DNA of 64,000 nt from an uncultured bacterium (GCA_964387845.1 CAYLXA010000004.1:32001-96000), one strand, 5' to 3'. Numbered from the stretch's first letter, positions 1 through 13,290 are shown. Made by a program: numbers and translations. Notes: a model not told the origin generated them from the sequence alone.

Positions 1-51
1 TCCGCGTTTATTCTGAATACGCTCTTCTCTCAATTTACGGTCACGCAGCAC

Positions 52-12000: not shown

Positions 12001-13290
12001 GATTTTACCGCCGTTGTCAGGGAATCTGACGGAACTTATATTCACATTCACGTCGCTCCGTGGGAATCGGTCAAAGTAGACGAACACTTCTTTGGCCGTT
12101 CTGCCGAGGAAGTCGTGCCTTTGCCTTCGGAAGAAAAGAAAGCCGAAACGCCGGATGCGCGGTCCGAGCTGCGGATTGCGGTACCAATCAGGACGGAAGT
12201 TATGCAGACAAATCTCGTATTGAATCGTGTAATAGATGAGCGATTCGCGACAGTGCTGGAACAAGTCGATACCGATAACGGCCGCAAGATTATTCTGAGC
12301 AGTGCACTTGCCGAGCTTTATCGAATATTCGAAAGTCTCGTGGCTCAGAATCCTGATTTCCGCGAAATTTACTACGGGCCGGAGGCGCTCTTAGATCCAA
12401 AACTGGTTTCGGCGATCAAGATTGCAAAACCCGGCGAACTTGCACCCGGACGGCGCGCGTCCTTCAATATCAGAACGCGTGAATTGGTTGTGAGCGAATT
12501 AACCGTGAGCGCGAGTTTGGTAGAAGATGCCGAAAGCGCTAAAGATGCTTTTGGGGAACTGAAAGCTGTGCTGGCGCACGAATGGCTGCATGCGGTTTAT
12601 AACCGCGATGCGGTTTTCCGAGCGCTCCGCATGAAAGATCCCGTCACATCGCTGTGGATTGAAGAATATTTTGCGCACCAGATTATGGAATATGTGGGCG
12701 GTGTTCCGGAAGAAGACCTGCCGGGTGAAATTACGCGCCATGTGAATGCCCGGCTGCGTGAAGCGCTCATTGCGCATCCGGAAGCGGCTTCTGTCCTTGC
12801 GCCGCGCACGCTGGCGGATGTATTGAAAGTGATCGACCAAGCGCAAAACGCCGAACCGCTCTTCGGTATCGTCGCAGTCGGCAAACATGCTTACGGACAT
12901 CTTGACCGCAATAGTCTGTGGACCAAGCCGCAATTAATTGAACGAGCGGCAAATGCAGGCCAGGCGCTTAATTTGGCCCGCAAGATGAAAGAGGGCCGCG
13001 AGCACTTTGAAGTAGTAATCGTTTTTGGCCGTGACGCGGAAAAACTCATTGAGGCATCAAACAGCACCGATCTCGTCCATTATCCGCGCATCTACTATAA
13101 ACAGGAAGAATTCCGCCCTTACCTGGCTCCGCTCGTTAACATGGCGGGTATTTTAGGAGCTGAGCGGTTTGCGCAAACGTTTAATCTTGCGAAGGGCGCC
13201 GTGTTTGAACTTAGCCGCACGTTCCTCAAGCGTATGGAAACCCTCTGGATGGAATTCCGCGCCCAGTTCCACATCTCCGCCGCAGCATAA
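52..13290 (+). CDS. Giant highly charged, probably alpha-helical protein (at least 4412 aa) with two zincin-like HExxH motifs. It is truncated at the 5' end by the window.
   Basis: A single ORF runs to the stop at 13288-13290. The frame has no stop between position 1 and the TTG at 52, so the gene probably starts upstream of the window. Motifs: IVVLHELTHLLDY around aa 3560 and VLAHEWLHAVYN around aa 4180. The sequence is E/K/R/D-rich. Confidence 0.7.
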   Translation: MNFTGETLEAFAKTSQLSYRMQELNPAAEVDRLAKSMNLTRAETLKILGVLDKIMDATLDQVSEMTGIDVAKLNEAVKKLTATAETGAAAPVAFTGGVKVSQIIERTGKTQDEVLGALGIGKLSTFHLNAVYGISASISAFGIQLSHPFFNIADSGMNVAESMGMSATQFTQTALAKPVSAIRFGEVMNLSPAEQDQLMTRIFGTKYAQIVERLESQGVSLNELDLFAAAQALGLKNVETLLARLLSHISAYELILNVDLIKNEQIRNALQAVKPVSVKVLKATFEETAQRTLENAEVVVAGLNEAITELREADRRYSRHAGVAKSRIKAIEAKIAELRNLIQSERVWTDASAAYHYAALNSQIAALNTLLSNTATKLEQVVDQINPHHQYILKDVARTASRKTTILAEQERDEIYQEIVKGKALQISADGVVTYHHNGQTVVLTEANWHELAEKLGFNPNIRYQEVVRTVADARNNSRQYKVNGKKLEFRGDVWISLEANALSEDRRAFKYLGQFVNAINYGKDTMILGLGALQDAIQGHGGVGFLAFRQIVLHEAFALYASFSKDFKNARQIHMKAQELEREDTENALEEKRFRQALLSRDDLMIGIRPSGEVIRSILDWSNQRFEIEDEDLVYAQAVEEAYQQAQGSAEGLISFFRQMHMLDLVWAKQFVEQELETESDLARRDQLNAELEAINQLIAEREAASKVHEQDEKDARKKETEDLAKGKTPEQLRKEHAEERSQMAWNQEGWEQSAVVEVDPSILPAARSELKAEPEKELAAAEEAVSTSDVREEFDKLRRDGAEVKIYGDVAYTDLERDDLAPKHRAKFGDDTYYFSDPFIDAGGRTVVIAYVYHTDSKTGQRKIFVNAYYKSNSQNVWRAASHKGYRGWIGKGYGEAGQMIPIQLQGQLSEIAESLRSRGELQEKENRFYGVLGAGAQLPFDSQMASVFRPRKADVLNVADVVEGFDNQRKRTTYDARFKPGYEPDFDNGITGVFTSENPVYGKVTSYVVRSKNGEVQYLFNVDEEGRVWIGGVQSTNQEINRQGILLDGLQVSMPDILLTPVFEYHEQIPSGYRGNTNPRHSSYADVSELIDGFSVVKEFRAKVLQNETVANQLKAERDAAIDNAAKLDADIDNVIQSGDPIKITQVIKLLAAAAEKYNGLQQLGVPYAEIRDKQNQLRGKYEKVKQIFLSQQAKKETEKEKPIEEAVKKESTEKPHAAEGAVKAWTSSLTATKQLLNRLNIRLVEVTPNPAEPHKTVLRAMAKDANDQSAITIAKEINAALDDFFVINGFDASVRFEIQQVEAIVNMAFGNGMFHLLTAGVGKNEVISLIAGRIAVKISEQISEKTEDGEINPSFNASLKEFLESRNIKIGDRFIVVLHNIPLFAQARDAATIEKEKGIKAYLDYSGVSIGILREDDLYTIRESPEAVDAEKESKKEKDSIVEKIRKSRFILAQDVALDFLNNDYRDRKDEIDDREFLQEIEDEAKANNQVLGSGMIESRLNSKKKSQKMMLDLWNSLFVNNRFVFDEGDTSLQKEGVQKMTGGEKRLNSVQVKMPNVIDTAIGKVLGKLQPTERLKRERELLKLVVRKTDGSAPTIRYKDWAAKKTAAQIRTEVEKELGEKATAQEIDEAIRERFKDGDARGTIIDARLDLPSHEDYTNAAAMAIAAKQKDTDQLQELVMKTLGPAKNQDPQMQMRIIQAGVSQIVKIVSQNGKGPKAVEKILEALLNLQGVMNNDSDRMLGFKIIQEIASAIEEEFQGKQVKLEWFLMTDEQFKQDKSELNYELWQQVHHARASLVGRANALKQFEREHITIYQEIVAKKVPGRDYENELIKMGEETKEKVRQLLVLAHQNGFSEAEIEQLARSSRESQFRKVPRALREKFGKSINEAEALWEFLKNAEWLSEISHFTLEDTIKVMAGSAVAPRLQQSDPYLAAHTQLVFMRDYAEQDLLQKKRTHLLMIDAQDMLERLENAESQINFLQEVKVSQDSIRSSRGDMVRQIQKKSVMHLMSGTGTHYENPLGINYGVRIIPYTKGERDRFFDESGARFINEVETQSSVADAIKSIKTDTKAGAREHLYVLMGMKGVDITFELVTPLIEKLLKGRNPDGTEVPKSARYNELIVKAVDEGWMKLTYNEKTGEVIRTAIPFLSEKGENVKEYLKDYATPGKRTAFFFDMGATRGVDVTMTANAEVVALFNTGSTAFDAIQLLSRDRGVREGPDGKFVYATSKELADDFRAGKISPKELKERLAAGDGFTYDETRMEGEGENKKLAWNFNVFHPTSVIMVDAARAPPFGYTAQEFAATLKRNDVLSSEDQLYKALIDDIDGKLVDLIEDLRFDVAHSSEEKTLLRELKTKFQNDRNLATDPNLGGAQKGVEGLEAARDRVLGFLKELAGSRGQKGYPEFLKLSESVRKIILDEISTLETTPIDLTQAQPIDRDDFDSPIQGTTTASTPSEVIRRINQLVRVEMLPTTAPTPGASGSQAQPTRTLEAVWSEGDRSTVKEGKRAAMDKENYEEGRFRPLESEAKEMIDQKGEEYGFLKEGKATDQQVKLIDAAMSWINGVRRKGDESAKLARWNLVTLGKYFRGIHIPDSDSDEEWMKAFFSLIDAGLIPMNMLNQLTFEFVNKIAVLLGSYDRDPQLTQPDKILAAIRFRDPIIGLVEYLMRKLDSRSAEHDMLSRQYRERIRQYDASESDNLRYQQNERRMRQVENELLKMRLDGKDNRRRFFSIPNAQRLLLKLEKNFTNSYIKIRNRVLVPADITSKSLADETQFIMSRNSDISEHDARRLALQNLDSGINPYEDKDAFEILDLAIRHLDKTVRMKDLKRFLKAFTPLIVTKNGYNQGKPLSDDDLREIAQLALRMALFGKDDKAYRPFEVSEHSVEAGRRLRDFGKLLRFFEGKFYNQYFVSNESLGSEENTLSDSGSVFHNLIRILMMRGLSHRQIERIMSKLREEKEFSDVEKPYLDLQKRILEKRKRGENVSETDQQELKTAFGKYEGILYSETVTKIIEDELRTQSSDLADEVMPIYRKQVNRISAFRMKDESQAHFDHMAAEIDKLESKLASEINEERKKQIKANITSLRMALKGVEEIATRIQEEGPGADTPAFVRSGMMHFVRRYFKMLLKLSLLGKFGSTEKEMNEAITLFFLPLMLHEVTEHQIDHTKIDYSKDLKKYVKTEGANDLGKMFRDILAEGTAASLVALLPEETRLKLAKVYEAAGEELHQAGIYARKMAVYNKMAANPELGLDLFSADPARQVKAAEPIVDYFKTTFINYYFEAIAAIRAGNPYLAKEILEQVYFKNRNEKGDLKPEADVSDFAFEEAMRYVREAIRLHGDLKLSREDREKQSKDVADAMDQHINTTISRLFQAYAGRQDWGQVVENTLSAAGAPGQDQSQQRIQGEAEIVTKGQRELFEKLTGQSIDEQNGQPQALTDEGLEELANGFRNFKNNGGNPDPQKVRAKDFKAVKAVWVDPGKNNEMLKSLMEKLGMPLTPFVRLVVDQKDWPAFEKKLGHDGSQAFAENRERFPENSVLGRAGILITQAGNSESTMIVVLHELTHLLDYLKTQANHEANAIDGLVMTEALREFKAFVPLVLEHKMTWQGVYQEFAKEDKHGYLNQYYDQAGIKDADERKKLRVRHLAIISALIQIMGLYTKQWDGNPKVIMNLLQSVTTPQELFSQFLALLPELDLEGKSIQPLVKSFFDGLLDERPKAVNQTPENEQIFKSYMDFSGSLLSHQNQDVSEAALTAFLDYPDMPYRKTYIEEHLRAVPNQVNAKAVLDATEKFVSDLEAAATEEERKQVVESEKQAEEPSPILNRHFGKFVVELSGMPTAEDFQRMTAFDYEFAVTAKLDENKEKHFYMTIGTFDEAVETYGKENLAGFYHTHPAGEEGEVSAIPSGIATGDEIYNYDGINQILPGTYAHIGTEKTLTRYFKIDANQAKALDFMIDAGEKVADIVGDLREVRTKAGEFLKAGKLDFTAVVRESDGTYIHIHVAPWESVKVDEHFFGRSAEEVVPLPSEEKKAETPDARSELRIAVPIRTEVMQTNLVLNRVIDERFATVLEQVDTDNGRKIILSSALAELYRIFESLVAQNPDFREIYYGPEALLDPKLVSAIKIAKPGELAPGRRASFNIRTRELVVSELTVSASLVEDAESAKDAFGELKAVLAHEWLHAVYNRDAVFRALRMKDPVTSLWIEEYFAHQIMEYVGGVPEEDLPGEITRHVNARLREALIAHPEAASVLAPRTLADVLKVIDQAQNAEPLFGIVAVGKHAYGHLDRNSLWTKPQLIERAANAGQALNLARKMKEGREHFEVVIVFGRDAEKLIEASNSTDLVHYPRIYYKQEEFRPYLAPLVNMAGILGAERFAQTFNLAKGAVFELSRTFLKRMETLWMEFRAQFHISAAA

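Follow-up and report, generated by a model that had tools for sequence, protein, structure and literature searches.

The window analysed here is a 64,000-nucleotide (nt) stretch of DNA from an uncultured bacterium (GCA_964387845.1, CAYLXA010000004.1:32001-96000), and its nt 1-13290 are the genuine 3' end of a giant gene, whose product carries predicted zincin-like and JAMM-like domains towards its C-terminus (Table 1). Frame 1 of the + strand runs free of stops from nt 1 to a stop codon at 13288-13290, giving 4429 codons, and the other five frames over the same 13.3 kb contain 110-317 stops each. The stop counts in the six frames bear out a preliminary description of this DNA, which had reported an uninterrupted frame still open at the window start. 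The same description gave the protein at least 4412 amino acids (aa); the giant open reading frame (ORF) is there, but that figure counts from the first TTG (nt 52) rather than from the start of the open frame.

The GC content at the three codon positions of the giant ORF (0.58/0.36/0.50) is coding-like already in the first 1500 nt and uniform along the gene, and the gene therefore extends upstream of the window. Its relative synonymous codon usage (RSCU) correlates with that of ten neighbouring genes (r=0.89). The giant gene is native, coding throughout and cut by the window edge, with its 5' end lying upstream of the window.

The encoded protein is highly charged, as had been described (E+D 15.5%, K+R 13.3%), and contains not a single cysteine in 4429 aa, where ~33 would be expected at the 0.74% Cys of its neighbours (P ~5e-15). 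This depletion is common to the whole family of homologues described below (0-0.4% Cys). We found no transmembrane-like segment in the visible 4429 aa, no internal protein repeats by self-BLAST (E<=10), no DNA-level repeats in the ORF by TRF, and no GGxGxD in the protein that would indicate RTX repeats. Together with the complete lack of Pfam matches at E<=1, the repeat searches agree with the earlier remark that no Ig, cadherin or RHS repeats were recognised in the giant. These data show a native, non-repetitive, cysteine-free and soluble polypeptide.

Sequence-level annotation was attempted for the whole protein. Besides Pfam-A, with 0 families at E<=1, we searched PHROGs (best match only E 0.055), NCBIfam and PADLOC (nothing relevant) and, with phmmer, the sequences of the PDB (nothing significant); profile searches of the PDB with four module alignments returned nothing meaningful. 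The membership in DUF4157, Peptidase_M78 or SprT that had been suggested for the two HExxH motifs thus finds no match in Pfam at E<=1 and nothing relevant in NCBIfam or PADLOC, nor is there a Pfam JAB match anywhere in the protein at that threshold. At aa 1621-1663 a calmodulin-like EF-hand match (E 0.3) turned up, which we attribute to chance.

Table 1. Features of the giant gene, with nt positions counted from the first letter of the window
Feature	Position (nt)	Strand	Basis or remark
3' part of giant gene (4429 codons + stop)	1..13290	+	open frame, coding-type GC1/2/3, RSCU r=0.89, collinear homologues
Lineage-specific N-proximal region (aa 1-1252)	1..3756	+	no homologues at E<=1e-3; beta-rich segment aa ~820-1100; degenerate helix-turn-helix-like units aa ~45-270
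First linker motif RSELK(AEP), aa 786-790, in P/E/A-rich linker	2356..2370	+	motif scan
Conserved family core (aa 1253-3400)	3757..10200	+	35-36% identity to P0001/P0006 and 26-28% to P0003, over 1500-2180 aa; alignment A3
Walker-A-like LTAGVGKNE (family invariant AG-G-GKN; F-H-x-x-x-A-G-x-G-K-N, aa 1338-1346)	4012..4038	+	A3; NTPase by motif only
DEAD-like DEGDTSL (family DE[A/G]DTSL, aa 1548-1554)	4642..4662	+	invariant in A3
SGT(G), candidate superfamily 2 (SF2)/SecA motif III, aa 2033-2035, ~480 aa past the DEAD-like motif	6097..6108	+	invariant in A3
GATRGVDV + SRDRGVR, candidate SF2 motifs V and VI	6595..6714	+	invariant in A3; hhalign to E. coli SecA not significant
Zincin-like domain 1 (aa 3480-3665): LGHDGSQAFA, HELTH aa 3578-3582 (nt 10732-10746), conserved R-E aa 3608-3609	10438..10995	+	
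All-helical spacer (aa 3666-3840)	10996..11520	+	HEAT/ARM-like in model
JAMM-like domain candidate (aa 3845-4040): E3868, H3907-T-H3909-P, P3921-S3922, D3934	11533..12120	+	invariant in A5
Linker motif RSELR(IAVP), aa 4054-4058, 139 aa before second HExxH	12160..12174	+	motif scan of family
Zincin-like domain 2 (aa 4100-4260): HEWLH aa 4193-4197 (nt 12577-12591), conserved E4222	12298..12780	+	
CheY/flavodoxin-like alpha/beta domain (aa ~4265-4400)	12793..13200	+	
C-terminal helix ending ...FHISAAA, then stop	13216..13290	+	hydrophobic-x-[A/S]-A end in family

A rare family of modular giants

Homologues of the giant are remarkably few. A word-indexed search of 5.8 billion proteins, made with the giant in three tiles, found no homologue for aa 1-1750 (E<=1e-3, core part excepted) or for aa 3480-4429, and a single match for aa 1751-3479: P0001, a partial hypothetical protein of 1833 aa from a Candidatus Omnitrophota metagenome-assembled genome, 36% identical to aa 1253-2781. 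When aa 3230-4429 were compared exhaustively by HMMER with 1.84 billion cluster representatives, only 13 proteins came up, six of them 4302-7895 aa long. The known relatives number ~14 in total, and many are giants themselves (4.3-7.9 thousand aa, kaa). Where a source is named it is mostly Candidatus Omnitrophica/Omnitrophota, the exceptions being one Aenigmarchaeota bin and one Verrucomicrobiae bin. The GTDB representative genomes hold no relatives of the giant, the JGI metagenome contigs neither its source nor a close relative, and the IMG/VR viral contigs none. By sequence similarity, these searches show the only relatives of the giant to be rare proteins, mostly assigned to ultra-small Omnitrophota bacteria.

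A BLAST map shows the family to be modular and collinear. The core (aa 1253-3400) is shared with P0006, at 35% identity over 2182 aa, and with P0003 and P0001; the four core sequences, 34-43% identical, make up alignment A3. Module 1 (aa ~3415-3800) was found in P0002, P0003, P0012, P0013 and P0014, module 2 (aa ~3760-4030) in P0002, P0007, P0008 and P0011, and the C-terminal module (aa ~4060-4429) in P0004, P0005, P0007, P0008 and P0009 and, more distantly, in P0003, P0006 and P0012-14. Across the family the cassette keeps one order, in which zincin-like domain 1 is followed by the helical spacer, the JAMM-like domain, the RSELR linker, zincin-like domain 2, the CheY-like domain and a terminus ending in A-A. 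Two short relatives, P0014 (1101 aa) and P0007 (1246 aa), are preceded by in-frame stops and represent free-standing cassettes, in which the C-terminal module is joined to module 1 or to module 2. The gene neighbourhoods of the homologues are not conserved. In the larger homologues clusters of transmembrane-like helices lie N-terminal to the shared core (13 helices in P0006, 10 in P0005, 8 in P0002 and 4 in P0003), and P0021 has an N-terminal signal anchor.

The first 1252 aa are essentially unique to the giant of this window, with only a weak 60-aa match to P0006. Within nt ~130-810 (aa ~45-270) there are 5-6 degenerate short units of the form xxxM(G/N)(L/I/M)(S/T)xxE..L, which are helix-turn-helix-like; the regular expression for these units was designed post hoc, and all its matches fall within the first 210 aa of the giant. 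A segment akin to the units opens P0001 and weakly matches aa 4831-4890 of P0006.

Several family members are of interest in their own right. P0002 (MBI4168028.1, 7895 aa) is the closest relative of modules 1 and 2, with 34% identity over 755 aligned positions; it was deposited as Candidatus Aenigmarchaeota archaeon, so that either the contig was mis-binned or sequence was transferred between an Omnitrophota bacterium and an archaeon serving as its host or prey. A GNAT acetyltransferase domain in P0005 (L084 1-17191, GCA_002781965.1) is the sole Pfam domain that the family members yielded; passages of two preprints describe GNAT domains as common in Omnitrophota giants (bioRxiv 10.1101/2023.11.21.568195; bioRxiv 10.64898/2026.06.07.730766). 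P0006 (7525 aa) lies directly downstream of a 9196-aa ORF and two small ORFs (L082 1-9929, contig ena:ERZ27247320:k141_544930). The 9196-aa neighbour has one Cys in its last 2928 aa, carries the linker motifs RAEMR/RAEAR/RSESR and ends in ...AVSKSA, and the 91-aa ORF beside P0006 ends in ...LLISA. The C-terminal domain of the giant family was not significantly detected in the 9196-aa protein (P 0.027). The linker motif and the small-residue terminus may perhaps be wider features of Omnitrophota-type giants.

The C-terminal cassette and the conserved core

The two HExxH motifs lie in the C-terminal quarter of the giant, where they had been reported: IVVLHELTHLLDY spans aa 3573-3585, with its HExxH at aa 3578 (nt 10732), and VLAHEWLHAVYN spans aa 4190-4201, with its HExxH at aa 4193 (nt 12577). 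Both motifs are invariant in the homologues, and two are seen where the composition of the protein predicts ~0.14. In module 1 (six sequences) LGHxGAxA, HExxH and R-E are invariant, and E3609 stands 27 residues past the second His, H3582. In the 11-sequence alignment of the C-terminal module, at 11-35% identity, H4193, E4194 and H4197 are invariant, and E4222, 25 residues past H4197, is near-invariant. Beyond HExxH the two domains show no similarity to each other, so they are not detectable duplicates.

Structural models were obtained for both modules. In the module 1 model (predicted local distance difference test, pLDDT, 73.8) the strands lead into the HExxH helix, which the Glu helix follows; the AlphaFold2 model of the C-terminal module (pLDDT 78.7, predicted template modelling score 0.79) has three strands, the HExxH helix and a helix with E4222, and ends with a five-stranded alpha/beta domain and a long terminal helix. 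HExxH falls in helix 122-143 of the first model and in helix 130-145 of the second, in both cases after a small beta-sheet. Both domains have HExxH on an alpha-helix, a Glu on the following helix, and structural similarity to solved zincins. The models therefore support a gluzincin-type fold for site 2 and, more weakly, for site 1, in which E3609 and E4222 would be the third zinc ligands; two such domains (HExxH + Glu) would be active zinc peptidases.

Compared with deuterolysin (1eb6), Wss1 (5xbn), NleC (4lgj) and 3e11, the identity is only 11-14%, with no hidden Markov model (HMM) match. Aspzincins are marked by the motif GTxDxxYG and SprT proteins by HExxHx5H. In the giant, by contrast, a Glu lying 25-27 residues beyond the HExxH motif is the probable third ligand.

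Between the zincin-like domains lies the segment for which a JAB-like character (HTHP...S...D) had been proposed. The HTHP motif is at aa 3907 as described, and in five homologous sequences (alignment A5) E3868, on a predicted strand, H3907-x-H3909-P, P3921-S3922 and D3934 are all invariant, with non-canonical spacing. In their order these elements, a Glu on a strand ~40 residues before H-x-H-P and then P-S and an Asp, resemble the JAMM/MPN+ metalloisopeptidases (Rpn11, AMSH, the N-domain of phage lambda gpK, prokaryotic JAB), whose motif reads E...H-x-H-x(7)-S-x-x-D. A weak match to phrog_5556 ('tail protein', E 0.0016) covers the HxH region in the giant of this window only. No family member has a Pfam match here, and no MPN fold was matched in a model that is poor at this point (pLDDT ~55).

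A short motif precedes the second zincin-like domain, in the linker peptide PDARSELRIAVPI. Its family form is R-[S/A]-E-[L/A/Q/S]-R, usually with [V/A/E]-P within four residues, in a P/A/E-rich linker. Ten family members, the giant of this window among them, have it, with 93-149 residues separating it from the C-terminal HExxH except in P0011, where that HExxH is missing; it is often duplicated. The giant has RSELR at aa 4054 and, as a second copy in another linker, RSELK at aa 786. Shuffled sequences predict 0.02-0.3 motifs per protein, which corresponds to a 10- to 100-fold enrichment, and the motif is not found in the other ORFs of the window.

The far C-terminus is equally constant. All 12 aligned family C-termini (11 homologues and the giant of this window) end in hydrophobic-x-[A/S]-A, once in A-V; examples are QVAA, QMAA, KVAA, LIAA and QSAA, and ISAAA in the present giant. 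No hydrophobic-x-A-A-type end occurs among the 41 other proteins of the window, and we found no terminator or promoter consensus after the stop codon of the giant. The ssrA tags added by transfer-messenger RNA (tmRNA) end in ...LAA or ...VAA and are read by ClpX. The family termini look, at the level of sequence, like the last residues of such a tag, but they are encoded in the gene and not added by tmRNA.

The conserved core carries a series of invariant motifs, among them F-F-F-x-x-G-A-T-R-G-V-D-V (aa 2194-2206) and S-R-D-R-G-x-R (aa 2232-2238) in A3. They occur in SF2 order (AGxGKN, DE(A/G)DTSL, SGT, GATRGVDV, SRDRGVR), with motif I ending in N, and can be likened to the DEAD-motor motifs I, II, III, V and VI in E. 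coli SecA, whose reference sequence was verified against the PDB at 1475 bits. Intermediate strings align as well, FIVVLHNIPLFAQARD to VHVVTVNDYLAQRD and ALDFLNNDYRD to FGFDYLRDN. Collinear likenesses to SecA (PF07517)/SF2 extend over Walker A, a VxVVxxNxxLAxRD-like strand, DExD, an insertion of ~480 aa at the place of SecA's preprotein-binding domain, GMTGT, AGRGTDI and RxGRxG. The core differs from SecA in that this insertion is three times longer, in GKN instead of GK[ST], and in that no SecA scaffold or wing domain was recognised. For us the notion that the core might be a very divergent ATPase of the SecA/SF2 type is a lead and falls short of a finding.

Neighbouring genes

Downstream of the giant gene lie genes for a peptide deformylase, AhpC, a UPF0047 protein and a TPR protein, and then a 2167-aa SpvB/TcdB/RHS protein. 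These are followed by tandem HisKA_7TM kinases with response regulators, a FabF-like synthase, a CDF transporter, MurJ and Rrf2, and further in the window by sulfate, zinc and phosphate ATP-binding cassette (ABC) systems, PhoU, a PhoR/PhoB-like pair, a porin, an amidase, a DD-carboxypeptidase and two tRNAs. The window looks like an ordinary Gram-negative chromosome, neither phage nor plasmid, and lends no support to the premise of a compact genome under which the giant was originally viewed.

Some of the neighbours deserve mention. In the representative genomes of 185,579 GTDB species nothing exceeds 44% identity to the peptide deformylase encoded by def (13691-14254). None of the window's proteins that were looked up occurs in the public protein collection, and the source lineage appears to be unsampled or withheld. 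The 2167-aa protein (18413-24916, + strand) combines SpvB, TcdB_toxin_midN and RHS repeats, in the manner of a fused TcB/TcC-like toxin shell, 5 kb downstream of the giant. It is followed by two small ORFs (24913-25260 and 25373-25840), one without a Pfam match and one DUF2846, and the gene and these ORFs may form a toxin/immunity set. The stretches 26495-32868 and 36756-39970 hold four tandem paralogous HisKA_7TM kinases (475, 477, 449 and 450 aa), with single-domain response regulators on either side, and, downstream, a fifth kinase (813 aa) and another receiver, an unusual local expansion of one sensor type. At 32865-36729 a FabF-like ketosynthase gene is followed by a weakly ThiF-like 413-aa ORF and a 362-aa ORF without a Pfam match, and a 442-aa ORF without any Pfam match lies between the sulfate and zinc ABC systems (49810-51138).

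Possible functions and comparison with known giants

We propose, with a probability of roughly 0.45, that the giant is the tail of an Omnitrophota-type giant protein, consisting of core and cassette, that processes itself by means of its zincin-like domains at the RSELR linkers. In the proposed layout a membrane anchor, missing from the window, would be followed by a divergent SecA-like motor and by the C-terminal protease cassette. The zincin domains would cut the polypeptide at R-S-E-L-R-x-x-V-P linkers, in cis or in trans between paralogues; cleavage would release the C-terminal module and other pieces, and the ssrA-like A-A terminus might serve as a degradation or targeting tag on the released module.

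Published work on other giants offers a frame for this proposal. Passages of one preprint describe Omnitrophota giants with many transmembrane helices, divergent SecA_DEAD domains and peptidases, with transmembrane anchors close to the C-terminus that precede SecA-related domains (bioRxiv 10.1101/2023.11.21.568195). In the same passages West-Roberts et al. suggest that the C39 and S8 peptidases of these proteins cleave the giant (bioRxiv 10.1101/2023.11.21.568195). The ATPase reading of the core is more plausible because published Omnitrophota giants carry SecA-related domains, and the transmembrane clusters N-terminal to the core in the larger homologues agree with the published layout of an anchor followed by SecA; the missing N-terminus probably anchors the giant in the membrane. 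A bolder version holds that the RSELR linker, the zincin/JAMM-like cassette and the A-A terminus together make up an unrecognised maturation system for Omnitrophota giants, in which the terminus would be a degron or targeting tag that times removal or export and the cysteine-free composition would be an adaptation; we think this improbable as a whole.

A number of observations weigh against the proposal of a self-processing Omnitrophota giant. An Omnitrophota origin of the window itself would follow solely from where the homologues occur; one of these is binned as Aenigmarchaeota and one as Verrucomicrobiae, and the def gene is without a close relative in the GTDB representative genomes. As to the motor, Pfam gives no SecA/SF2 match for the four core sequences at E<=10, hhalign of the full core alignment and of sub-alignments against E. 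coli SecA gives a probability below 2%, and a PDB profile search with the core alignment found none. Seven of eight shuffled pairwise tests of the core against SecA were at chance (z ~0), and one pairwise test, with nucleotide-binding domain 2 (NBD2) of P0003, gave z=4.7 with GMSGT aligned to the GMTGT of SecA. The Walker-A-like motif ends in N, not S/T, and in an HMM comparison of the core with 1314 ORFs from the homologue loci the region after SGT gave a weak and ambiguous rival match to a ClpB-type AAA+ segment. As to processing, cleavage at RSELR is purely inferred by us. P0011 keeps the linker motif with no HExxH in its C-terminal module, and the 9196-aa neighbour of P0006 has the motif with no HExxH in its last 2928 aa; cleavage in cis is therefore not general, and the motif could alternatively be a docking site.

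It has to be asked whether the giant is instead a secreted or injected multi-effector toxin, whose zincin and JAMM-like domains have proteins of prey or host as their targets. The C-terminal helix and A-A end would then be a non-cleaved secretion signal, and the lack of Cys would reflect unfolded passage or a function outside the cell. Such a role would suit the absence of cysteine from the giant and its strong depletion across the family, the absence of a transmembrane segment from 4429 aa, the Tc-toxin-like SpvB/TcdB/RHS gene 5 kb downstream and the predatory or episymbiotic lifestyle proposed for Omnitrophota. However, there are no RTX repeats and no secretion-system genes among the scanned genes of the window, and the ATPase-like motifs, with the upstream transmembrane clusters of the homologues, better fit the cytoplasmic tail of a membrane-anchored protein. 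The C-terminus is conserved, not polymorphic, the protein lacks RHS and filament repeats, and what comes after its gene is def, for peptide deformylase, rather than an immunity-like gene; the analogy to polymorphic toxins drawn in the preliminary description fails on these points. We consider a toxin unlikely.

The order seen in the homologues, a transmembrane cluster, a P-loop-like core and then zincins, could also belong to a membrane-anchored ATP-dependent protease or remodelling machine that acts on other substrates, by the FtsH-like logic of anchor, NTPase and HExxH protease. The giant would in that case be a quality-control or export-processing enzyme, with the CheY-like domain as a regulatory input and RSELR and A-A as interaction sites. 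The CheY-like fold adjoins zincin 2, the weak match after SGT is to a ClpB-type AAA+ segment, and West-Roberts et al., in the passages of their preprint, allow that peptidases 'may cleave other protein substrates' (bioRxiv 10.1101/2023.11.21.568195). Against this, neither Pfam nor hhalign supports an NTPase identity, zincin 1 begins more than 1200 aa beyond the last ATPase-like motif, and free-standing cassettes exist without the core, so that the proteases need no motor. An enzyme of this kind seems to us rather improbable.

Finally, the HExxH domains might not be peptidases at all but structural zinc sites, pseudo-enzymes or another HExxH hydrolase or oxygenase, in a giant that is mainly a helical scaffold. 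That no sequence-level match to any peptidase family exists and that large parts of the models are HEAT-like helices would be in keeping with this. However, the Glu of HExxH and that of the third ligand are invariant or nearly so at 11-35% identity, which is unusual for a pseudo-enzyme, and the strand-helix-helix topology matches that of zincins; we therefore hold a non-peptidase role to be quite improbable. An artefact, either an assembly chimera or a long ORF that is no gene, is extremely improbable: the ORF is indeed cut by the window edge, and its source genome is absent from all the collections that were searched, but a 13.3-kb stop-free frame at 47% GC is impossible by chance, codon usage is uniform and native, and a chimera is argued against because the module order recurs in independent assemblies.

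The giant genes of Omnitrophota pose a recognised puzzle, namely in what way a cell makes, places and uses polypeptides with thousands to more than 100,000 residues. The present locus offers a tractable handle on the dark giants, in the form of a compact family whose conserved and separable cassette of ~1000 aa also occurs stand-alone, with two mutable predicted zinc-protease sites, a candidate cleavage motif and a constant tag at the terminus. Should giants indeed be processed by the cassette, the published idea that giant proteins are polyproteins could be tested directly in E. coli, with no need to culture the organism; otherwise the cassette still constitutes a new family of zincin-like domains.

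Several known systems invite comparison. MARTX and large clostridial toxins carry a cysteine protease activated by inositol hexakisphosphate and glycine-rich or combined repetitive oligopeptide (CROP) repeats, and MARTX toxins need a type I secretion system. The giant is like these toxins in being a very large single polypeptide whose embedded protease would free modules at linkers between domains, but it has no cysteine, no repeats and no secretion genes nearby. From RTX/MARTX type I substrates it differs in the absence of GGxGxD, and the ABC systems of the window are sulfate, zinc and phosphate importers.

The closest comparison is with the Omnitrophota giants themselves (Archaeovorin and dockerin types), as described in passages of the two giant-gene preprints. 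Pfam-dark proteins make up 137 of 916 proteins of at least 10 kaa, ~15%, according to passages of the second (Nielsen & Lui 2026, bioRxiv 10.64898/2026.06.07.730766). As far as these passages go, the present family is alike in the phylum of most named homologues, in multi-kaa single ORFs and a Pfam-dark fraction, in transmembrane clusters (in the homologues only), in a SecA-like region (by motif only) and in embedded peptidase-like domains. It differs in size, with 4.3-7.9 kaa in the homologues where the published set has genes of more than 90 kb, in the lack of repeats and of glycosyl or dockerin domains, in a SecA-like region invisible to Pfam, and in peptidases that are zincin-like with a possible JAMM, where the published ones are C39 or S8. 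The passages of the two preprints contain neither the sequence family nor the zincin + JAMM-like cassette, which also occurs stand-alone, nor the RSELR linker, the A-A terminus or a cysteine-free composition, the word 'cysteine' being in neither; a literature text search for Omnitrophota plus metalloprotease returned no paper. The term 'undescribed', as first applied to this protein, is therefore too wide for the giant, which fits a published class, but may hold for its sequence family and protease cassette, of which we found no description. What is new here is the protease cassette family; giant Omnitrophota proteins, including Pfam-dark ones, are already described in the passages of those preprints.

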